Shown one piece after another: positions 690 through 39,293 of a stretch of 64,000 nt of DNA. The translations under genes and the position numbers were made by a program. This stretch comes from Candidatus Calidihabitans tengchongensis (GTDB taxonomy: Bacteria > Sysuimicrobiota > Sysuimicrobiia > Sysuimicrobiales > Kaftiobacteriaceae). Positions within the stretch are counted from its first letter, which is position 1. Each line of letters starts with the position of its first letter. The notes beneath the pieces were generated by a model. That model did no database searches and was not told the origin of the DNA. It saw only the letters and a list, made by a program, of their open reading frames with translations. The stretch is taken from positions 8,291 through 72,290 of the forward strand of contig JAVKIE010000009.1 in assembly GCA_031459615.1 (NCBI GenBank), in the 5' to 3' direction.

Positions 690-2258
690 ATGTCTGAAGC
701 CCCGCGCTCGTCCGTCTGGCCCGGGTGGTGGCTTGCGGCAGCCGTGGCTGTCCTGGCGGCGGGCCTGAATCTCCCCCTCACAGACGGCGATACGGCGCTG
801 TACGCCACGGTCGCCCGGGACGCGCTGGCCCGCGGAGAGTGGGTCGCCTACACCTTCCGGGACGGGCGCGTCTTCGACAAGCCGCCGCTGACCCTCTGGC
901 TGCTGCAGGTTTCCATCGCCGCGTTCGGGACGGCGGAGTGGGCGGTGCGGTTGTGGCATCTGGCGCTGGCGCTGGCGACCGCCGGCGCGACCTACCGGCT
1001 GGCGCGCCTGGTCCTTCCGGTGCGGGAGTCGCTGCTGGCCGCGGTGGTCCTGCTGACCTCGGCGCAGTTCTTCTACCAGGCCCTGGTCCCCCAGCAGGAC
1101 GTGCCGCTGACGCTGTTCGTGGCCCTGGCGGTGTACGGCTACCTGCGCTGGGAGGCGGACGGGCGCGTGGTCTGGGCCGTCGTGGCGGGGGTGGCGGCCG
1201 GGCTGGCCGTCCTGTCCAAGGGGCTGGTGGGGGTGGTGCTGCCGGCTCTGGTCGCGGGGACGCGGCTGGTCGTGGACCGTCCGCGGCCTCCCGCCCGGTG
1301 GCCGGTGGCGCTGGCCGTCGCGGCCGCCGCGTGCCTGGCGGTGGCCGCCCCGTGGTTTGTGGCGGCCGGACTGCGCCAGGGCCGGGAGTTTGTGGAGACG
1401 TTCTTCGGGGGCGGGACTCTGGGCGTGGGCCGCTTCTTCCGTCCGGCCCTGTCCGCGCCGGGGTGGGTGCCGGCTGCGGCCGGGCTGTTCGCCTACGCGG
1501 TCTTCCTGCCGCTGGGCCTGCTGCCCTGGACGGGGTGGCTGTGGCCGGCGCTGCGGGAGGGCCTCCGCGCGCGCGATCGCGTGCTGCGGGTGTGCTTTCT
1601 GTGGGTTGTGGCGGTGCTGGTCTTTCTGTCGGTGTCGCCGGGAGACAAGGTCATCCGGTTCCTGCTGCCGGTCTTTCCGCCGGCGTCCGTGCTGCTCGCC
1701 TCCGTCGTGTCCGACCCTCGCAGGATCCGGGGGGCGTCGGCGGTCTCGCTGGCGGCAGGGGGCCTGCTGACGGCGGCCCTGGTGACGCTGGCGGCGGCCC
1801 CGCTGCCGGCCGAAGTGACGCCGTTCCGGCCGGTGGCAGCCGCCCTGCTGCTGCCGCTGGCCGGGGGGCTGGCGGTGTCCTCGCTCCTCCTGCGGACGAG
1901 AGCCGGCCGCTCCGCAGTCCCCGCGCTGGCCGCGGCGGCGCTTGCCGGCTACAGCCTTCTCCTGGTGGCGACGGCCCGCCAGTGGGACCGGATGTCCCCG
2001 TGGAGGCCGGTGGCCAGGATGGTGGAAGTGGCGGCCGCCGAGGACACCCACGTCCTCGTCGAAGGCGAGCCGACACCGTTCGCCTGGTTCTACATCCGGC
2101 GGCCGGTGCGCTTTGTCTCCCGCGACGGGCTGGCGGCCGAGTGGACGAGCGGGCGGGTCGTGGCCGTCATGCCCGTGGACATGGTGGCCGCCCTGCCCGG
2201 TCCTCCGGTGGTGGTGGGCGGCGCCCCGGGCGGGCTGGTGGTGGTCAAGAACTACTAG
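690..2258 (+). CDS. GT39/GT83-type polyprenyl-phosphate-sugar transferase (ArnT/PMT family), a polytopic membrane protein.
   Basis: The 522-aa product has many TM helices. Its N-terminal region has the DxD...KPPL signature (DGDTALY...DKPPLTLW) typical of ArnT/PMT glycosyltransferases. Confidence 0.75.
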   Translation: MSEAPRSSVWPGWWLAAAVAVLAAGLNLPLTDGDTALYATVARDALARGEWVAYTFRDGRVFDKPPLTLWLLQVSIAAFGTAEWAVRLWHLALALATAGATYRLARLVLPVRESLLAAVVLLTSAQFFYQALVPQQDVPLTLFVALAVYGYLRWEADGRVVWAVVAGVAAGLAVLSKGLVGVVLPALVAGTRLVVDRPRPPARWPVALAVAAAACLAVAAPWFVAAGLRQGREFVETFFGGGTLGVGRFFRPALSAPGWVPAAAGLFAYAVFLPLGLLPWTGWLWPALREGLRARDRVLRVCFLWVVAVLVFLSVSPGDKVIRFLLPVFPPASVLLASVVSDPRRIRGASAVSLAAGGLLTAALVTLAAAPLPAEVTPFRPVAAALLLPLAGGLAVSSLLLRTRAGRSAVPALAAAALAGYSLLLVATARQWDRMSPWRPVARMVEVAAAEDTHVLVEGEPTPFAWFYIRRPVRFVSRDGLAAEWTSGRVVAVMPVDMVAALPGPPVVVGGAPGGLVVVKNY

Positions 2259-4578
2259 GGGACGACGCCGCGGGCCGGGGCAGCAGGGCCAGCACCTCCG
2301 CCGCGATCTGACTGACGGCTCCGGGGGGCCCCATCCGCTGCCGTCCTGCCTCGCCTCTGCGGGCCCGCTCGGCGGGATTTCCCAGCAGGCGCAGGACGGC
2401 CTCCGCGGCTTCGTCCCAGGAGCCCACCGCCACCACCGCATCTCCCAGGATGCGCTGCTGCAGCCGCAGGAACGGGCGCGTGAACTGGGGGCCGGGACCC
2501 GGGAACGCCACCACGGGTTTGCCCAGTCCCGCCGCCTGCTCGTTGGCGGTTCCGGCCAGCCCGACCACCACATCAGCGACGCGCACGGCCGCGCCGAAGG
2601 CGCCCGTCAGGCGCACGGCCGCCTCCGAAGAGCGCAGCACGTCTCCGTCCGCCTGCCACCCGGCCCGCACGGCTGTCGCGTGCACGCGGTCCAGGTCCAG
2701 AGACGGCGCCAGCGCGCACACGAGGTTGACCCGCTCCGTCCGGCCCACCCGGCCCGCCAGGGCCAGCAGCAGCTCCAGGTTGCCGTAGGCCTCCTGGCGG
2801 CTTCCCGGCAGCAGGAGTACCGTCGGCAGGCGCGGGTCCAGGCGGGGGTCCGTGCCGTCGGGGCCGATGGTGTCCATCAGGGGGTTGCCCACATGGCGCG
2901 CCGGGACGCCCCGGGCCGCCAGGGCCGAAGCGGTGAGGGCATCCCGGGCGAACACGACCGCGGGCAGCCGGCGCATCAGCCGCAGCTCCAGCCACTGGTG
3001 AGGCTCGCCGTGCTCGGATTTGGCCGTGGCGATGTAGACCACCGGCCGGCCGGCGTGGGCGGCCATCCACAGGCAGTAGAAGTCCCCAATCGCCACCACC
3101 GCGTCGAACCGGCCGCGGCACGCCCGCAGGGTGCGCCGCTGCTGCCACCACAGGCGCAGGACGCCGGCGCGCAGGTCGGCCAGCAGGCCCGGCAGGTGGT
3201 TGCGGAATCCGAACCCCCCCGAGGGCAGCGCGCGCCGGGGGTCCAGGAGCGGGATGTCGCGGTAGGCCGTGCCCAGGCCGACCAGGGGAAAGGCCGCCAC
3301 ATCTGCCGCCGGGCGCAAGGCCTGCGCCAGGACCATCCCCACGGCGTCCTCCCCGTGGCCGTTGCTGACCACCAGGACCGACGGCCGGCCCGCCAGCGGG
3401 GCCGGATCCCCGGAGACCGGGGCAGGCTGGCGATGTTGTGAGAATGCCGCCTGCACGGCGACCAGCATCCAGAACCCTGCCGCCACGTTGACGGTCATGA
3501 TTGTCCCGTCGAACTGCTCCCTCACCAGCAGGCCCACAAACGCCGCCAGCACCGCGGCGGCGAGGATCCGCTCCTCCCGCGTGGCCGCCGCGCGGCGCCA
3601 CCGGTAGCCGGCTGCCAGGGCGCCAGCGATCACGGCGACCAACGCCGCCAGCCCCACCAGTCCCCCTTCGGCCGCCGCGTTGAGGATGATATTGTGGGCG
3701 AACGCGCGGGGTATTGCATCGACCACGACGTAGTCCGGGTGCACCATCCAGAAAGTGTTCATCCCCGTCCCCACCAGCGGGTGGTCACGAAAGATGGCGA
3801 GGGCCGCCCGGGCCAGGGCGAGGCGGTCCTCGTTGGCGGCCGGATTGAAGATGGTGGCTGCCCGCTGCACAATCCCCGGTCCAGCCGAGGGGAACAGCAC
3901 CACCCAGACGGCGGCGGCGGCTGCCAGCGACACCAGTGCCGGTGCCACCCACCGTCCCCGCACCATCACGAGCAGTGCGACCACTCCCGCCGCGGCGCCC
4001 ACCCAGGACCCCCGGGAGTACGTGAGGGCGAGGGCGAGGACAGAGGTCGCTCCGGTCGCGGCGGCCAGCAGGCGGACCGCCCCCGCAGACGTCATCGCCA
4101 GGCCCAGGCTGAGGACGCACGCGATCATCAGCGTCGTCCCCAGCGGGTTTACCGACAGGGCCGGCAGCTCGGCCCGGCCGGTCAGCGGGGTACTGGCAAG
4201 GGTCCACACCGCCGCCCCCAGGCCGCCGGCGACCCACGCCCGGACCAGCGCCACCCCCAGCGAGGGCCTACCGCGCAGGTTCCGGTAGAAGGGGGCAAAT
4301 CCCGCCCACAGCACCAGGGCCGACAGCACGGCGGACCCCGTGGCGGTGCCGCGGTAGGGGGACGCCACCCCCGCCAGCAGAAACGCGGCGACAAATGCCG
4401 CCAGGGGCAGGTCCAGCGGGCTCCGCTCCCAGGGGATCCGCCGCGTCGCCAGGCCTTCTACGATGCCGAACACCAGCAGGAGGAACAGGCCCGCGGCCGC
4501 GTAGCCGGAGCTGAAGACCAGGGCGGTGCCCAGGATCAGCAGGCGTGTGAGGCGCGTCCACCAGGTCTCCTGGTTCAC
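2245..4578 (-). CDS. Fusion protein: an N-terminal O-antigen ligase (Wzy_C/WaaL-like) polytopic domain joined to a C-terminal lipid-A-disaccharide-synthase-related (LpxB-like, TIGR03492-type) glycosyltransferase domain.
   Basis: The 777-aa product starts at a GTG at 4578, overlapping the upstream gene's stop (GTGA). The N-terminal roughly 390 aa are TM-rich with a WaaL-like loop. The C-terminal roughly 380 aa (PSVLVVSNGHGED...) resemble LpxB-related proteins. Confidence 0.7.
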   Translation of the reverse strand: MNQETWWTRLTRLLILGTALVFSSGYAAAGLFLLLVFGIVEGLATRRIPWERSPLDLPLAAFVAAFLLAGVASPYRGTATGSAVLSALVLWAGFAPFYRNLRGRPSLGVALVRAWVAGGLGAAVWTLASTPLTGRAELPALSVNPLGTTLMIACVLSLGLAMTSAGAVRLLAAATGATSVLALALTYSRGSWVGAAAGVVALLVMVRGRWVAPALVSLAAAAAVWVVLFPSAGPGIVQRAATIFNPAANEDRLALARAALAIFRDHPLVGTGMNTFWMVHPDYVVVDAIPRAFAHNIILNAAAEGGLVGLAALVAVIAGALAAGYRWRRAAATREERILAAAVLAAFVGLLVREQFDGTIMTVNVAAGFWMLVAVQAAFSQHRQPAPVSGDPAPLAGRPSVLVVSNGHGEDAVGMVLAQALRPAADVAAFPLVGLGTAYRDIPLLDPRRALPSGGFGFRNHLPGLLADLRAGVLRLWWQQRRTLRACRGRFDAVVAIGDFYCLWMAAHAGRPVVYIATAKSEHGEPHQWLELRLMRRLPAVVFARDALTASALAARGVPARHVGNPLMDTIGPDGTDPRLDPRLPTVLLLPGSRQEAYGNLELLLALAGRVGRTERVNLVCALAPSLDLDRVHATAVRAGWQADGDVLRSSEAAVRLTGAFGAAVRVADVVVGLAGTANEQAAGLGKPVVAFPGPGPQFTRPFLRLQQRILGDAVVAVGSWDEAAEAVLRLLGNPAERARRGEAGRQRMGPPGAVSQIAAEVLALLPRPAASSPSSS

Positions 4579-18572: not shown

Positions 18573-19385
18573 GTGCCGGAGATCCGCCCGCAGGACATCA
18601 TCGACATCCTCATCGTCACCCTGCTGGTCTACCAGCTGCTGCTGCTGATCCGGGGCACCCGGGCGGTGCAGCTGGTCATCGGGCTGGGAATTCTGGTGGC
18701 GGCCTACGCCGTCAGCCGGGCCCTGGGCCTGTACACGCTCCAGTCGGTCCTCCAGTACCTGGGCGTGGTGATCCCCATCGCCCTGCTGGTCATCTTCCAG
18801 CCCGAGCTGCGGCGCATGCTGGAGCAGCTCGGACGCGGCGGCGTGCTCATCAGCGGGCTCACACCCCACGCCCTGGGGCGGGAGGAGCGCATCCGGCTGG
18901 CCAACGACCTGGCCCGGGCCGCGCGCATCCTGGGGCTGCGCAAGATCGGCGCGCTGATCGTCCTGGAGCGGCAGACGGGGCTGGAGGACTTCATCGAGAC
19001 CGGCGTGCGGGTGGATGCGGTGGTCACCGTGCAGCTGCTCATCACCCTGTTCTTCCCCAATTCCCCGCTGCACGACGGGGCGGCCATCATCCGCGGCAAC
19101 CGGGTGGTGGCCGCCGGCTGCCTGCTGCCCCTGTCGGAGAACCCGTCCCTGGCCCGCCTCCTGGGCACGCGCCACCGGGCGGGGGTCGGGATCACCGAGC
19201 AGACCGACGCGGTGAGCCTGATCGTGTCCGAGGAGACCGGGACGATCAGCCTGGCCCGGGAGGGCGAGCTGATCCGGGGACTGTCGGAGGAACAGGTGAA
19301 GGCCGCCCTGCTGGAACTGACGGCGCCCGGCCCGGCGGCCGCCGTGGGCCCGTGGCGGTGGTGGAGGACGATCCGCCGCTCATGA
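18573..19385 (+). CDS. cdaA: Diadenylate cyclase (c-di-AMP synthase) with three N-terminal TM helices and a DAC domain.
   Basis: DAC-domain motifs DGA and RHR (within GTRHRAGVG) are present. The architecture and the downstream cdaR-glmM synteny match cdaA. Confidence 0.9.
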   Translation: MPEIRPQDIIDILIVTLLVYQLLLLIRGTRAVQLVIGLGILVAAYAVSRALGLYTLQSVLQYLGVVIPIALLVIFQPELRRMLEQLGRGGVLISGLTPHALGREERIRLANDLARAARILGLRKIGALIVLERQTGLEDFIETGVRVDAVVTVQLLITLFFPNSPLHDGAAIIRGNRVVAAGCLLPLSENPSLARLLGTRHRAGVGITEQTDAVSLIVSEETGTISLAREGELIRGLSEEQVKAALLELTAPGPAAAVGPWRWWRTIRRS

Positions 19386-20041
19386 AACTGCGCCGCCCTC
19401 TGCTCAGCGAGCAGCAGTTGCTCCTGCTCCTGTCGTTTCTCATCGCGGTGACCTCCTGGTATTATGTGGTGTCCACCCGCCCGCCCCGCGGCCCGCAGGT
19501 CACCTCCAAGGTGGTGGCCGTGATCCCCCGGATCGAGGGCGAGCCGGCCTACGGGTACAGCATGCTGGGCGTCCGGGTCACCCCGCCCACGGTCGTCGTG
19601 ACCGGCGTGGCCGAGCAGCTGGCCGCCCTGGACGCCGTGCGCACCGAGGCCGTGGACGTGACCGGGGCCACCCGGGATGTGGTGCGGGAGGTGGCGGTGG
19701 ACGCGCCGTCGGGAATGGCCCGCCCGGCCCGCGTGCGGGTGGCGGTGCAGGTGGTGCCGGCCATCGCGGCCCGGGTCGTCCCCGGCGTGCGGGTCCGGGT
19801 GCAGAACGTCCCGCCGGGGGTGGTGGCGCGCGTGGAGCCGTCCACCATCGCGGTGCAGGTGCAGGGGCCGGTGGCGGTGGTCAGCCGGCTCCGGCCCGAC
19901 GACCTGGTGGCGGTGGTGGACGGGGCCGACCTGTCCGAGGGGCGCCGGCGGGTGCGGCCCCAGGTGGTGGCGCCCGAGCAGGTGACGGTGGTCGACCTGC
20001 GGCCGGACATGGTGGTGGTGGTCGTCCGCCGGGGAGGATAG
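19382..20041 (+). CDS. cdaR: YbbR-domain regulator of CdaA.
   Basis: ATGA overlap with the cdaA stop. N-terminal TM helix followed by beta-rich YbbR-like repeats. The position between cdaA and glmM is conserved synteny. Confidence 0.7.
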   Translation: MKLRRPLLSEQQLLLLLSFLIAVTSWYYVVSTRPPRGPQVTSKVVAVIPRIEGEPAYGYSMLGVRVTPPTVVVTGVAEQLAALDAVRTEAVDVTGATRDVVREVAVDAPSGMARPARVRVAVQVVPAIAARVVPGVRVRVQNVPPGVVARVEPSTIAVQVQGPVAVVSRLRPDDLVAVVDGADLSEGRRRVRPQVVAPEQVTVVDLRPDMVVVVVRRGG

Positions 20042-20100
20042 CAGGTGCACGGGAGCATGTGCGCGGGCGGGCTGCAGGCGCCCGACCGGTGAGGGGCGCG

Positions 20101-21459
20101 GTGGGCCGTCTGTTCGGAACCGACGGCGTGCGCGGCGTCGCCAACGTGGACCTGACGCCCGAGCTGGCCCTGCGCCTGGGGCGGGCGGCGGCCCACCTGC
20201 TGAGTCCCGCCGGCGGCGGGCAGTTCCTGGTGGGCCGCGACACCCGCCTCAGCGGGCCGATGCTGGAGGCGGCGCTGGTGGCCGCCATCTGCTCGGCCGG
20301 CGGCCAGGCCCTGCGGGGCGGGATCCTGCCCACGCCTGCCGTGGCGTACCTCACCCGGCGGCTGGGGGCGACCGCCGGGGTGGTCATTTCGGCCTCCCAC
20401 AACCCGGTGGAGGACAACGGCATCAAGTTCTTCGGCCGCGACGGCTTCAAGCTGCCCGACGCCGTCGAGGACGCCATCGAGGCCCTGCTGGACTCGCCGG
20501 ACCTGCGGCGGGCCGTGGGCCTGCAGGTCGGGCGCGCCGAGGACATCCCCGAAGCCGCCGACCTCTACGTGGACCACCTGGCGGCCCTGGCCGTCGCCCC
20601 GGCGGCCGGGCTGCGGGTGGTGGTGGACTGCGCTCACGGCGCGGCCTGCCGCACCGTCCCTGCCCTGTGGGAGGCGCTGGGCGCCACGGTGATTCCCATC
20701 AACGACACGCCCGACGGCGCGCGGATCAATGTCCGCTGCGGCTCCACCCACCCCGATGTGGTGGCCCAGGCGGTGCGGGACCGCCGGGCGGACGTGGGAT
20801 TCGCCCACGACGGGGACGCCGACCGGGTCATCGCGGTGGACGAGACCGGCGCCGTGGTGGACGGGGACGGCCTGCTGGCCATTTGCGCCCTCCACCTGCA
20901 CGCCCGGGGACGGCTGCCCGGCGCGCGGGTGGTGGCCACCGTGATGTCCAACCTGGGTCTGGAACGGGCCCTGCGCCGGGCGGGAATCACCCTGGAGCGC
21001 ACCCGGGTCGGTGACCGCTACGTGCTGGAGCGGATGCGCCAGGTCGGGGCGACGGTGGGCGGCGAGCAGAGCGGGCACATCATCTTCCTGGACCACGCCA
21101 CGACCGGCGACGGCGCCCTGACGGCGGTGCAGGTGGTGAACGTGATGCTGCAGACCGGCAAACGTCTGTCGGAACTGGCCGCGGTGGTGGAGCGGCTGCC
21201 CCAGGTCCTGGTCAACGTGGCCGTGGCCGACCGCGCGGCTCTGGACACCCGCCCGGCCATCGCGCGCGCGGTGGCCGATGCGCAGCGGGCGCTGGGCGAG
21301 CGGGGGCGCGTGCTGGTGCGCGCCTCGGGCACCGAGCCCCTGGTGCGGATCATGGTGGAGGCGGAGGACGCCGCCCAGGCCGCGTCCCTGGCCGACCATC
21401 TGGCGGACGTGGTGGCCCGCGAGCTGGGCGGCCGCCGCCTGGAGGCCCCACGGGGTTAG
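20101..21459 (+). CDS. glmM: Phosphoglucosamine mutase.
   Basis: GRLFGTDGVRG and SASHNPVEDNGIKFF are present. Possible alternative start at 20059. Confidence 0.9.
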   Translation: MGRLFGTDGVRGVANVDLTPELALRLGRAAAHLLSPAGGGQFLVGRDTRLSGPMLEAALVAAICSAGGQALRGGILPTPAVAYLTRRLGATAGVVISASHNPVEDNGIKFFGRDGFKLPDAVEDAIEALLDSPDLRRAVGLQVGRAEDIPEAADLYVDHLAALAVAPAAGLRVVVDCAHGAACRTVPALWEALGATVIPINDTPDGARINVRCGSTHPDVVAQAVRDRRADVGFAHDGDADRVIAVDETGAVVDGDGLLAICALHLHARGRLPGARVVATVMSNLGLERALRRAGITLERTRVGDRYVLERMRQVGATVGGEQSGHIIFLDHATTGDGALTAVQVVNVMLQTGKRLSELAAVVERLPQVLVNVAVADRAALDTRPAIARAVADAQRALGERGRVLVRASGTEPLVRIMVEAEDAAQAASLADHLADVVARELGGRRLEAPRG

Positions 21460-21465
21460 CGCCCG

Positions 21466-22272
21466 GTGGCATCGGCCGCGCATCCTCCCGGCCGCGTTCC
21501 CGCCGACCGCGAGCCGCCCGCCTCCGAACTGCTGGGGGTTCGGGTCCACCACGTCACCCTGGACCAGGCGGTGGAGCGGGTGGCCGCCCTGATCGCCTCC
21601 GGCGGCCCGCATCAGGTGGTGACGGTCAACGGGGCGATGCTGGTGGCCGCCGCTCGGGATCCGGCCGTGCGCTCGATCCTGTCGCAGGCGTCGCTGGTGG
21701 TGCCCGACGGGGTCGGCGTGCTGGTGGCGGCGCGGATTCTGGGCCGCCCCCCCTTCGTGCGGGTGCCGGGCGTGGAGCTGGCCGAGCGTCTGTGCGCGGA
21801 GGCGGCCGCCGCCGGCTGGCGCGTGTTCCTGCTGGGGGCGGCGCCGGGGGTCGCCGACGACGCCGCGGAGGCGCTGCGCCGCCGCTATCCGGGCCTGCAG
21901 GTTGCCGGCGTCCACCACGGCTACTTCTCCGACGACGCTCCCGTCCTGGTCCAGATCCGGGCGGCCCGCCCGCACGTGCTGCTGGTCGCCCTGGGGTTTC
22001 CGCGCCAGGAGATGTGGATCGCCCGGCACCGGGCGGCGCTCGGCGTGCCGGTGAGCATGGGCGTGGGGGGGACGCTGGATGTGCTGGCGGGACGCGTGCG
22101 CCGCGCGCCGGCGTGGATGCAGCGGGCCGGGCTGGAGTGGGCGTACCGGATCGCCCGGGAGCCCCGGCGCCGGTGGCGGACGGCGGCGGCGCTCCCGCAC
22201 CTGATGGTGCTGGCGCTGAAGGCGCGGCTGCGCCGGGAGAGGGGAAAAGACCTCAATGGACAGGGATGCTAA
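21466..22272 (+). CDS. WecB/TagA/CpsF-family (GT26) glycosyltransferase, an N-acetylmannosaminyltransferase-like enzyme.
   Basis: LLGVRVHHVTLDQAV ... VVPDGVGVL ... LLGAAPGV ... GFPRQEMWI are family motifs. Confidence 0.8.
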   Translation: MASAAHPPGRVPADREPPASELLGVRVHHVTLDQAVERVAALIASGGPHQVVTVNGAMLVAAARDPAVRSILSQASLVVPDGVGVLVAARILGRPPFVRVPGVELAERLCAEAAAAGWRVFLLGAAPGVADDAAEALRRRYPGLQVAGVHHGYFSDDAPVLVQIRAARPHVLLVALGFPRQEMWIARHRAALGVPVSMGVGGTLDVLAGRVRRAPAWMQRAGLEWAYRIAREPRRRWRTAAALPHLMVLALKARLRRERGKDLNGQGC

Positions 22273-22344
22273 AGTGTGGTCTACTGAGAGGGCCCGCCGG
22301 CACCCGTGCGGGCGGGGGAGGTGAGAGCAAGCCGCAGGTCAGGT

Positions 22345-22610
22345 GCCGCAGCGCCAGGCCCCTGGCGCGGAAGGCGGGTTGTGCGGGGCGGACCGGTGGA
22401 CCAGACGCCCTCGTCCGCAGTCTCACGCCAGGGGTGACGAGGGAGGGGATCTCGGACGGCCCGCCCGGTCATCGGCGTGATGATCCGGGCGGTGACCGCA
22501 TCGGCGGGTGACCCTAGGCCGGTGGTCCCGGCCTGCACCCCTCCGACGCCCGTCGGAGGCAAGGCAGCCGCCAAACCCCGGAGGCAACTCCGGCCCAGAA
22601 GGCTGCCAGG
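22345..22610 (+). ncRNA. Candidate glmS ribozyme (GlcN6P-responsive self-cleaving leader). The boundaries are approximate.
   Basis: It sits in the 456-bp leader of glmS. It has A/GCGCCAG with a local hairpin (ccagg cccc tgg), then GACGAGG and an AUCGGCGGGUGACC segment resembling the conserved core CGGCGGAUGCC. It is longer than the canonical ribozyme, which is a caveat. Confidence 0.5.
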
Positions 22611-22728
22611 ACCAGGTCGCACACACGAATGGATCCCGCGGCGCCGTCGGCGCGCCGCGCGGGTCTTGTGCGGCCGGAGCTGACATCCGGTCTGTCCATT
22701 CGGGGAACAGTGTCCGCAGGAGGGCATC

Positions 22729-24648
22729 ATGTGCGGCATCATGGGATACATCGGCCGGCAGAGCGCGCTGCCGGTCCTGCTGGACGGTTTGAAACGGCTG
22801 GAGTACCGTGGCTACGATTCGGCGGGCGTGGCGGTCCTGGCCGACGGCCGCATCGAGGTGCGCAAGACGGCGGGCAAGCTCAGCCGCCTGGAGGAGATCA
22901 CCCGGCAGCCTCCTCTCCCCGAGGGAACGGTGGGTATCGGCCACACCCGCTGGGCCACCCACGGCCTGCCCACCGACGCCAACGCGCATCCCCACACCGA
23001 CTGTCGCGGGCGGGTGGTGGTGATCCACAACGGGATCATTGAGAACTTCCTCCCCCTCAGGGAGGAGCTGCAGGCGCGGGGCCACACCTTCCGGTCGGAC
23101 ACCGACACCGAGGTGCTGGCCCACCTGATCGAGGAAGAACTGGCGGGGCCGCCCGGGCGGGAGGGCGACGACCCGGCGGGAAGCGGCGCGGCGCCGCCGG
23201 GCACCCGCCAGGCGGTGGTGGACCGCCGCCTCCGCCTTCCCCTGGACGAGGCCGTCCGCCGGGCGGTGGCGCGCACCCGGGGAGCGTACGCCATCGTGGT
23301 GATGAGCGCCGACGCCCCCGACCAGATTGTGGCCGTCCGGCAGATCAGCCCGCTGATCGTGGGGATCGGCCAGGGCGAGACCGTCCTGGCGTCGGACATC
23401 CCGGCGCTGCTGCCCTACACCCGGGACGTGCTGGTGATCGAGGACGGCGAGCTGGCCGTGCTGACGGCGGGCGGCGTGCGCATCCAGCGCCTGGACGGCA
23501 CCCCGGTGCGGCGGCAGCCGGTGCACATCACCTGGGACGCGCAGATGGCCGAGCGGGGAGGCTACCCCCACTTCATGCTCAAGGAGATCTTCGAGCAGCC
23601 GCGGGCCCTGCAGGAGACCATGATGGGCCGGCTGGACGTCCCCGGGGTGGTGGAGCTGGACGGGGTGGGGTACACCGACGCCTTCGTCCGGGACCTGCGC
23701 GCGGTCTGGATCACGGCGTGCGGCACGGCCTACCACGCCGGCCTGGTGGGGCGGTGGCTGATCGAGCACTGGGCGCGGATCCCCGCCGAGCCGGAGCTGG
23801 CCTCCGAACTGCGGTACCGCGATCCGCTCATCGGTCCCCACAGCCTGGCGGTGGCCATCAGCCAGTCGGGAGAGACGGCCGACACCCTGGCGGCGGTGCG
23901 GGAGCTGCGCCGGCGGGGCGCGCGGGTGGTGGCCGTCACCAACGTGGTCGGCAGCACCCTCAGCCGCGAGGCCGACGACGTCCTGTACATCCGGGCCGGC
24001 CCGGAAATCGCCGTGGCCAGCAGCAAGGCATACGTCTCCATGCTGGTGGCTCTGCAGATGCTGGCGCTGGACCTGTCCCTGCGCCGCGGGGTCCTGGCGC
24101 GGGAAGAGGCGCTGGCGCTGGTGGCCGCCATGAAGGCGCTGCCCGCCCAGGCTCAGCAGGTGCTGGACCGGGCGCCGCAGGTGGAGGCGCTGGCCCGCCG
24201 GATCGCGGACCGAGAGCACGTCTTCTTCATCGGGCGGGGCCTGGACTACGCGGTGGCCCTGGAGGGCTCGCTGAAGCTCAAGGAGATCTCCTACGTGCAC
24301 TCCGAGGCTCTGGCCGCCGGCGAGCTCAAGCATGGCACCCTGGCCCTGGTGGCGCCGGGCGTGCCGGTGGTGGCCCTGGCGACCCAGCGGCACGTGTACG
24401 ACAAGACCCTGTCCAACATTGAGGAGGTCAAGGCGCGGGGCGGCGAGGTGATCGCGGTGGCCTACGATGACGACGGCGAGATCGACAAGCACGCCCACAC
24501 CGTGGTGCGGATCCCGCCGACCCGGGACGAGCTGGCGCCGGTGCTGGCCATCATCCCCCTGCAGCTGCTGGCCTACTACGTGGCCCGGGAACGGGGGAAC
24601 GACATCGACCAGCCGCGAAATCTCGCCAAGAGCGTGACCGTGGAGTGA
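22729..24648 (+). CDS. glmS: Glutamine--fructose-6-phosphate aminotransferase.
   Basis: MCGIMGYIG, the N-terminal nucleophile Cys2, followed by SIS domains. Confidence 0.95.
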
Positions 24649-38327: not shown

Positions 38328-39293
38328 ATGGGCAAGTGGCAGCTGCCGCCGCCGGGCGGCCACATGGACAAACGCACCGGCATCTACCTGCAGACCATGA
38401 CCATGCGCGATGTGGAAGAACGCCTGAAGACCAACGACGTGCTGATCGTGCCGCTGGGATCTACCGAAGCCCACGGCCCCAACGCGCCCCTGGGGGAGGA
38501 CATCTTCCTGGTGACGCGCATGGCCGAGCTCGTGGCCGAGCGCACCGGGTGCACCGTCAGCGAGCCGCTGTGGTTCGGCTCGCACCCCTACCACCACATC
38601 GGCATGCCGGGCACCGTGCCGATTCCCGAAGACGTCTTCACCGCCTTCGTGCGGGCCATGATCGCCGGCTTCTGGAACATGGGGTTCCGCAAGCAGATCC
38701 TGCTCAACGGCCACGGCCAGGAGTACGTGATCCCCACCGCCATCCACCAGTTCGCCAAGCGCTACCGGGTGCCGGCGCTGATCGTGAACGTGAACTGGTA
38801 CCACGCCATCCCCGACCACTTCCGGCTGCGGGCGGAGGGCGGACCGTACGAGACCCCGTTCATCCACGCCGACGAGGTGGAGACCAGCTGGTGCCTGGCC
38901 CTGTTTCCGGAACTGATGAAGCAGGAGTGGGCGGTGGACAACACGCCGTTCGGCTTCCTGCCCGAAGGGCACGTGGACAAGGCCGGCAACCTCCTGCGGC
39001 GGCCCATCGCCTGGTACGGCCACGTGGGCGCCGGACCCATCGAAGTGAAGGCCTATCTGGAGGGGGTCGTGGGCCGGCCCACCCTGGCCCGGGCCGAGAA
39101 GGCCCTGCCGGGGGTGGAGGCCCTGCTGGACTACCTGGAGCGGCTGGTCACCGACATCCTGCAGAAGTTCCCGCCCGGCCAGCTGCCTCCCGCGCACCTG
39201 CTGACCGAGCGGGACGAGAGGGAGCTGGAGGAGATCCTCAAGGGGCCCGCCCGCGGGGGGAAGAGCATCTACAGCCTGGGGTGGCCGCCGTAG
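38328..39293 (+). CDS. Creatininase-family amidohydrolase.
   Basis: LIVPLGSTEAHGPNAPLGED is the creatininase-fold metal-binding motif. Confidence 0.8.
   Translation: MGKWQLPPPGGHMDKRTGIYLQTMTMRDVEERLKTNDVLIVPLGSTEAHGPNAPLGEDIFLVTRMAELVAERTGCTVSEPLWFGSHPYHHIGMPGTVPIPEDVFTAFVRAMIAGFWNMGFRKQILLNGHGQEYVIPTAIHQFAKRYRVPALIVNVNWYHAIPDHFRLRAEGGPYETPFIHADEVETSWCLALFPELMKQEWAVDNTPFGFLPEGHVDKAGNLLRRPIAWYGHVGAGPIEVKAYLEGVVGRPTLARAEKALPGVEALLDYLERLVTDILQKFPPGQLPPAHLLTERDERELEEILKGPARGGKSIYSLGWPP

Follow-up and report, generated by a model that had tools for sequence, protein, structure and literature searches.

Does the long leader of glmS in Candidatus Calidihabitans tengchongensis encode a glmS ribozyme, the self-cleaving riboswitch with glucosamine-6-phosphate (GlcN6P) as its cofactor, when the Rfam model of this class, RF00234, does not recognise one there? 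The leader is located in a 64,000-nt stretch of contig JAVKIE010000009.1 (assembly GCA_031459615.1, positions 8,291 to 72,290), referred to below as the window; all coordinates are positions in the window, and features are on the + strand unless otherwise stated. A first-pass annotation, made from the sequence alone, had proposed that the 456-bp leader of glmS carries a glmS ribozyme that is longer than the canonical form owing to GC-rich insertions. The leader is indeed the 456-nt intergenic spacer between wecG and glmS (22273-22728), and the proposal is supported by homology to orthologous leaders, two covariance models built from relatives, intact pairings and covariation. We conclude that the leader very probably harbours a working glmS ribozyme-riboswitch whose catalytic type is ordinary and whose periphery alone is unusual. 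The ribozyme spans about 22342–22614; as its 3' end (22614) precedes the ATG of glmS (22729) on the same strand, it constitutes part of the 5' leader of glmS on the coding strand. It is about 265-275 nt long, compared with about 150-170 nt in canonical forms, and belongs to a known class of regulator, enlarged in a way that leaves it undetected by the Rfam model.

A GlmS-based scan of species-representative genomes yielded 80 loci for comparison. The nearest of them came from metagenome-assembled genomes (MAGs) labelled Armatimonadota or Ca. Fervidifonticultor/Sysuimicrobium, followed by Bacillota. Those nearest MAGs are members of Ca. Sysuimicrobiota, the phylum previously called CSP1-3, and several of the relatives are hot-spring MAGs; riboswitches are not mentioned in the paper on this phylum. 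Of 40 loci that were tested, 32 gave an RF00234 score at or above the gathering score (37 bits) directly upstream of glmS (41.7-113 bits). The exceptions among the closest relatives were L001, whose GlmS is 89% identical to that encoded in the window, L002, L003 and L009; the contig of L003 ends within P1, and L009 is without a leader. When the leaders were placed side by side, every block of the window element was shared by Rfam-positive ones. For instance, 139 of 171 core columns are the same in L012 (46.3 bits) and the window. L002, which carries only the loop insertion described below, differs from L012 chiefly by a 34-nt insertion, and scored 34.6 bits over the full RF00234 model. A metagenome scan for a motif specific to the sub-clade of the window added 63 further loci (L081-L143).

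The first covariance model, R1, comprises 193 positions and 39 pairs; its training set of 24 Rfam-positive relatives left out the window and L001-L003. Its sole strong match in the 64 kb was at 22421-22621 (86.2 bits, E about 5e-22). R1 put the 5' end of the element at 22421-22432, inside the P1 3' strand, where CACGCC was read for AGCGCC. We rejected this placement because C/A would then stand at the scissile position, P1 would be lost and L001 shows nothing equivalent; R1 collapsed P1 because its training set had short P1 loops only. The second model, R2, covers only the 5' half of the element, from the 5' to the 3' strand of a candidate helix termed P0 (see below), and was trained on 25 sub-clade members, natural variants with a long P1 or a loop insert included, and the window and L001 excluded. 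R2 aligned globally to 22337-22541 (56.4 bits, E about 1e-10), with A/GCGCC at 22350/22351, both arms as simple insertions (the loop arm as a single one) and no non-canonical pair, either in P0 or elsewhere; L001 behaved similarly under R2 (39.9 bits). The predicted cleavage site was placed at 22350/22351 by R2 and by alignment with L001, L002, L012 and L016. This is the position that had been predicted in the first-pass annotation, and the block surrounding it, A/GCGCCAG (22350-22357), is in register with L012, L016 and L002 and with R2 model positions 13-20.

The pairing map of the element was derived from the Rfam consensus and the crystal-structure-based scheme in PMC7125110. In that scheme, P2.1 is formed by C28-A30 with U43-G45 and P2.2 by C2-C5 and G7 with C52-G56, A6 being bulged and positions 47-50 making up the P2.1-P2.2 loop; PMC11602151 describes P3 and P3.1, the loop IL4 and how the L4 tetraloop docks onto P1. 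All pairings that define a glmS ribozyme (P1, P2, P2.1, P2.2, P3, P3.1, P4 and P4.1) were found to be intact in the window, and the invariant blocks AGCGCC, GACGAGG and UCGGCGGGUGACCCU are unaltered. The three sequence blocks on which the first-pass annotation had relied, A/GCGCCAG, GACGAGG and the core element UCGGCGGGUGACC (22501-22513), were all recovered in place. The cleavage consensus consists of A22350 and G22351-C-G-C-C22355, between which the scissile bond (A22350/G22351) is predicted, followed by a bulged A22356 (N6) and G22357. P2.2 is formed by C22352-G22506, G22353-C22505, C22354-G22504, C22355-G22503 and G22357-C22502, and is near-invariant in 56 relatives. P1 (22358-22435) has a 10-bp base, in which GCCCCUGGCG (22358-67) pairs with CGCCAGGGGU (22426-35), and all nine modelled P1 pairs covary in the same relatives. 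The first-pass annotation had drawn a local hairpin (ccagg-cccc-tgg) here. It can be drawn as GCGCCAG-GCCC-CUGGCGC, but is not a conserved fold: the comparative data assign CCCCUGGCG (22359-22367) to the 5' strand of the long P1, paired with CGCCAGGGG (22426-22434). We rejected the local hairpin as a conserved fold, as relatives are without it and the minimum free energy (MFE) fold prefers the long P1.

Downstream of P1, GACGAGG (22436-22442), which is invariant in the alignments, contributes C22438-G22439-A22440 as the 5' strand of P2.1, the active-site strand; P2.1 has 3 bp, CGA with UCG (C22438-G22454, G22439-C22453 and A22440-U22452). The segment 22444-22454 carries the P2 5' strand AGGG, then G22448, AUC and the P2.1 3' strand UCG (22452-54). 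P2 (22444-47 with 22512-15) pairs AGGG with CCCU over 4 bp, from A22444-U22515 through G22447-C22512; its first pair alternates between A-U and G-C among the relatives, and the helix is 100% paired. The core block UCGGCGGGUGACCCU (22501-22515), invariant across the clade, supplies the 3' strands of both P2.2 (CGGCG, 22502-06) and P2 (CCCU, 22512-15). It is followed by the P3 hairpin AGGCCGG-UGGUC-CCGGCCU (22516-22534; 7 bp, 22516-22 with 22528-34), in which all pairs covary. The loop of P3, UGGUCC (22523-28), pairs with GGACCA (22609-14) in the P3.1 pseudoknot, which covaries between lineages (GGUCC:GGACC, GUUCC:GGAAC, ACCGGC:GCCGGU, CCC:GGG) and marks the 3' boundary of the ribozyme, slightly beyond the end at 22610 given in the first-pass annotation. 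The P4 domain (22563-22607), matched by R1 and by RF00234 positions 111-157, contains P4 (GGCAGCC/GGCUGCC, 7 bp, 22563-69 with 22601-07), the internal loop IL4 (GCCAAAC(C)/CCCAGAA), to which a role is given after PMC11602151, and P4.1 (22578-83 with 22588-93) closed by the GNRA loop GCAA (22584-87); both P4 and P4.1 covary. MFE folding of 22340-22620 independently recovered all nested helices, namely P1 with its arm, P2, the loop arm, P3, an extra hairpin P3x, P4 and P4.1.

The same structure, including both core pseudoknots, was evaluated on the 56 relatives aligned to R1: it was 94.5% paired, versus 36-47% when the strands were slid out of register. Two-sided changes were found in 40 of the 47 pairs, and none of 500 shuffles matched the observed values. 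A similar pattern was seen between the window and its closest relative, L001. The columns shared with L012 are 91% identical between the two (156 of 171), whereas identity in the arm columns drops to 62% (57 of 92). The differences in the core that fall within helices are compensatory: in P3, C22519-G22531 is replaced by U-A and G22521-C22529 by U.G in L001; in P4.1, A22582-U22589 by G-C; and in P4, C22569-G22601 by U.G. As the core is better conserved than the arms and its changes are compensatory, purifying selection on the structure appears to be continuing.

What sets the window element apart is three expansions, all of which are self-contained hairpins that fold better than dinucleotide shuffles (z from -2.4 to -3.7). 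The first is a 58-nt GC-rich arm of P1 (22368-22425; whole arm, -45.6 kcal/mol, z -2.36). The second is a hairpin of 42 nt (22457-22498) that occupies the loop of the P2.1-P2.2 pseudoknot, a loop of 4 nt in the canonical core (-29.5 kcal/mol, z -3.67; none of 200 shuffles folds equally well). The third, P3x, is a lineage-specific hairpin between P3 and J3/4, directly after GCACC (22535-39), in which CCUCCGAC and GUCGGAGG are joined by GCCC (22540-22559; 8 bp, -14.7 kcal/mol, z -3.34). The CCUCC/GGAGG pairing of the first-pass annotation does exist (22540-44/22555-59), but belongs to P3x and not to P2. P3x is found throughout sub-clade A, with sequences that differ yet remain self-complementary, and in another form in group B, a further set of Sysuimicrobiota loci; in the aligned leaders of group C, a third set, and of Bacillota it is absent. 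The sites of the P1 arm and the loop arm vary naturally. Among the relatives, the P1 segment measures 19-104 nt and the distance from GACGAGG to CGGCGG 24-84 nt, and many relatives with varying P1 or loop length still pass Rfam. The loop-arm site is occupied by a stem of different sequence in L001, L002, L004 and every relative of groups B and C, and the non-homologous arms at the matching sites of L001 and L002 also fold better than dinucleotide shuffles. Among 72 sub-clade sequences, long P1 arms occur in about 31 and the loop hairpin in about 13; the two occur together in six, namely the window, L001, L099, L137, L140 and L142. The sites of the GC-rich additions face away from the core, and the additions plausibly help folding by stabilising or guiding it. 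We also considered the arms as dispersed repeats or miniature inverted-repeat transposable elements, and rejected this idea, as neither the window nor any of the 143 loci contains a further copy of them. Short tandem-like repeats, UAGGUCGUAGGUCAUAGGUCGUAGGUCAU, were noticed in the long P1 arms of two metagenome relatives, L085 and L102, which suggests that arms grow by local duplication.

In addition to the expansions, the comparison points to a helix that involves the leader 5' of the cleavage site. GGUGC (22342-22346; positions -9 to -5 relative to G1) is complementary to GCACC (22535-22539), directly after P3, and the pairs run from G22342-C22539 through C22346-G22535. Neither GUGC (-8 to -5) nor the complementary GCAC just after P3 varies within the sub-clade, and the pair flanking them covaries (G:C in 15, C:G in 12, U:A in 2 and unpaired in 7 of 36 distinct sequences). 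The proposed helix is 89.8% paired in register, versus 12-51% when slid, and no permutation reached the observed value (p<2e-4). Because the GUGC:GCAC core is invariant, the support comes mainly from one covarying pair. From these sequence data we regard it as reasonably likely that P0 is a 5-bp helix bridging the scissile bond, which would connect the leader to the strand 3' of P3. The MFE fold draws a different hairpin here, of the GUGC of P0 with G1-C4 of the cleavage-site strand, suggesting a possible OFF conformer. In group B, an upstream UGGG(U) is complementary to the (A)CCCA loop of its extra hairpin; there is no sequence variation at that place.

Further upstream, we noticed a stand-alone Shine-Dalgarno (SD)-like box, GGAGGUGA (22317-22324; extended form GGGGGAGGUGAG, 22314-22325), which starts 33 nt upstream of A22350. 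Of 53 distinct sequences from upstream of the ribozyme in the sub-clade, 51 contain an exact match of at least 7 nt to AAGGAGGUGAUC, the complement of the 16S 3' end, compared with about 4% of 43-mers drawn at random from the window. The box recurs about 29-51 nt ahead of the cleavage site in L001-L035 and L081-L143, groups B and C of the Sysuimicrobiota included, and was not seen in the Bacillota loci compared. No start codon follows it at a conserved spacing in the sub-clade upstream sequences. In these respects the box resembles the 5'-proximal SD-like stabilisers (STAB-SD) that, as cited in PMC3997798, are established in Bacillus. The example given there, from B. thuringiensis cryIIIA (Agaisse and Lereclus 1996), is likewise a strong SD-like sequence in a 5' untranslated region (UTR) with no start codon after it. 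A STAB-SD element is an SD-like sequence close to the 5' end of an mRNA, where it binds the 30S subunit and lengthens the half-life of the mRNA but does not initiate translation. Unlike STAB-SD, the box in the window precedes a ribozyme cleavage site, so that cleavage would detach it from the message. By analogy, it may act as a 5' stabiliser that is removed by self-cleavage; we offer this as a hypothesis only, because no promoter was located. By eye, a GC-rich hairpin (CCCGCC...GGCGGG) can be discerned directly 5' of the box, within 22290-22316, as can an extended -10-like sequence, TGcTAAAGT (22267-22275), overlapping the stop codon of wecG.

If the window element works like the known members of the class (PMC3997798, PMC7125110, PMC11602151), GlcN6P would, upon accumulation, bind to the double-pseudoknot core (P2, P2.1 and P2.2) and serve as the cofactor for self-cleavage between A22350 and G22351. 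Cleavage would separate the glmS message from its 5' leader and leave a 2',3'-cyclic phosphate end and a 5'-OH end. In Bacillus, the 5'-OH cleavage product is degraded by RNase J1 (PMC3997798), and in organisms with RNase J such an end would trigger 5'-to-3' decay and lower the level of GlmS, a negative feedback. From the sequence and from the class as a whole we infer that cleavage depends on the ligand, how and where it takes place, how the product decays and what the additions may do; the regulation itself would be the expected feedback control of GlcN6P synthesis.

Several observations weigh against a functional ribozyme in the leader and have to be set beside the evidence given above. The RF00234 search that the first-pass annotation had proposed gave no match at the gathering score in the whole 64 kb, and permissive settings on the leader alone gave only a local match of 15.1 bits (E 0.37), which spans 22541-22607 and model positions 89-157, the P3-P4 half, with P3x read as P3. 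The fifth, innermost position of P2, G22448/A22511, is an unpaired G.A, albeit one that is common to all clade members, Rfam-positive ones included. Two competing hairpins, GGUGC/GCGCC (22342-46/22351-55) and the 7-bp GCGCCAG/CUGGCGC (22351-57/22363-69), would sequester the P2.2 strand; the latter rivals both P2.2 and P1 and could form first during transcription. Moreover, the large arms could slow folding, and a scan of the leader for consensus promoters and terminators found none. That the blocks merely resemble a ribozyme by chance, in a GC-rich spacer, has the absence of RF00234 at gathering score as its sole support, and we consider this idea refuted already and of negligible probability: the custom models match the leader with E about 5e-22 and 1e-10, its blocks line up one by one with those of Rfam-positive orthologous leaders, and no helix is missing. 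More attention is due to the idea that the element is a relic, i.e., that the insertions inactivated a former glmS ribozyme and glmS is now regulated otherwise or constitutively expressed. The low RF00234 score would fit such a relic, as would three expansions at once, which are rare even within the sub-clade, and alternative hairpins that could trap the P2.2 strand. Nevertheless, we judge a relic improbable, as (i) the invariant core nucleotides and the helices are all intact, (ii) relative to L001, the arms have diverged far more than the core, and P3, P4 and P4.1 show compensatory changes, (iii) the arms are ordered hairpins at permissive sites and not random disruptions, and (iv) members with two of the expansions recur (L099, L137, L140 and L142), one of which, L140, passes Rfam. 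In the window and L001 only, CUGGCGC in the P1 5' strand is complementary to GCGCCAG.

The remaining alternative accepts an active ribozyme with an altered read-out. In addition to or instead of decay by RNase J, cleavage would remove a 5' protective module, consisting of the SD-like box and perhaps the leader tethered by P0, or else the arms would add a second input such as temperature. It is attractive in that the box is conserved and P0 covaries, both being upstream of the scissile bond, that STAB-SD offers a precedent in Bacillus (as cited in PMC3997798), and that several relatives are of hot-spring origin. Since the case for P0 is essentially one covarying pair, and since an altered read-out extends the best explanation rather than excluding it, we regard it as very improbable as a replacement for a functional ribozyme-riboswitch of the ordinary type. 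A broader version of the same idea is that the glmS ribozymes of the Sysuimicrobiota sub-clade form a distinct structural subclass in which the 5' leader is part of both the fold and the regulatory logic. P0, next to P3x, would bridge the scissile phosphate, the SD-like box about 30 nt upstream would be a ribosome-binding 5' stabiliser severed by self-cleavage, and the alternative pairing of GUGC with G1-C4 would be the OFF conformer. We put this forward tentatively and consider it rather doubtful at present. If P0 and the SD-like box are functional, this would be the first case in which sequence 5' of the glmS cleavage site matters, and these lineage-specific parts are the ones most worth experiment.

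Returning to the functional ribozyme that we favour, its likeness to the glmS ribozymes in RF00234 (those of B. subtilis, B. anthracis and T. tengcongensis) extends from the position in the 5' UTR of glmS to A/GCGCC with the bulged sixth nucleotide and G7, P1, GACGAGG with P2.1, P2, CGGCGG(A/G)UG with P2.2, P3 and the P3.1 pseudoknot, P4/P4.1, the A-rich internal loop and the GNRA tetraloop. The window element differs from them in its greater length, the 58-nt P1 extension, the 42-nt loop hairpin, P3x, the probable P0 and the innermost G.A of P2. Compared with the Rfam-positive Sysuimicrobiota (L012, L006 and L016 of sub-clade A; L018-L027 of group C), its core, including UGACGAGGGAGGGGAnCUCG and UCGGCGGGUGACCCUAGG, is near-identical. 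Sub-clade A shares the P3x/P0 insertion of the window, and both sub-clade A and group C share the GGAGGUGA box and the wecG-glmS context. In group C, P3x and P0 are missing, and every P2.1-P2.2 loop contains a short stem. Unlike the window, these Rfam-positive members have a P1 with a short loop, or lack the loop hairpin, or both, which is why they reach 42-86 bits with RF00234.

The miss of RF00234 on the window is caused by the three expansions and is a false negative; after the comparative analysis, we rejected it as evidence of absence. The first-pass annotation had named the lack of a significant hit, along with a lack of GlcN6P-dependent cleavage, as grounds for dismissal. The former would have wrongly discarded the finding. 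The window is not an isolated case, as RF00234 passes only 6 of 20 further sub-clade loci tested and misses 14, and at least 17 of 32 sub-clade members tested fall below the threshold. The sub-clade is poorly covered by the model, which has a lineage-wide blind spot here, and glmS regulation in the lineage would therefore be mis-annotated as absent. The members missed include short-arm ones (e.g., L081), in addition to the window, L001 and L002. Extending the Rfam seed alignment with sub-clade sequences would cure the blind spot, which affects part of an uncultivated, globally common phylum of soil and hot springs. The window also indicates that the glmS core tolerates about 125 extra nt at three sites, which is useful for structure-function studies and engineering.

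The regulated gene, glmS (22729-24648), encodes glutamine-fructose-6-phosphate aminotransferase, as judged from Pfam matches to SIS (198 bits, 2 domains), GATase_6 and GATase_7; the protein starts with MCGIMGY. Upstream on the same strand are cdaA (18573-19385; Pfam DAC and CdaA_N), ybbR/cdaR (19352-20041; Pfam), glmM (20059-21459; Pfam PGM_PMM I-IV) and, between glmM and the glmS leader, a gene for a glycosyltransferase of the WecG/TagA family (21466-22272; Pfam). The cdaA-glmM pair named in the first-pass annotation is thus real according to Pfam, but the joint control of GlcN6P supply by c-di-AMP and the ribozyme that had been built on it found no support. The cdaA-cdaR-glmM(-glmS) neighbourhood is an ordinary conserved synteny of the Bacillota type. 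A documented link runs from GlmM to the activity of CdaA; we know of none from c-di-AMP to glmS.

Weak matches of R1 and R2 elsewhere in the window, at 38596-38791 on the - strand (16.4 and 17.9 bits), were judged spurious, because the opposite strand carries a creatininase-family gene (38328-39293, +; Pfam 166 bits) and neither GACGAGG nor CGGCGGGUG is present.

A different arrangement was noticed in group B (L013, and also L014, L015, L017 and L019), where the ribozyme is located about 1.3 kb upstream of glmS. In L013, the ribozyme occupies 1483-1673 and an intervening gene 1765-2946 (+), and glmS begins at 3001. The gene directly after the group B ribozyme encodes a class-V fructose-1,6-bisphosphatase (Pfam FBPase_3, 524 bits). 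In this group the ribozyme would control an fbp-glmS bicistron, and hence the supply of fructose-6-phosphate, the substrate of GlmS, together with GlmS itself.

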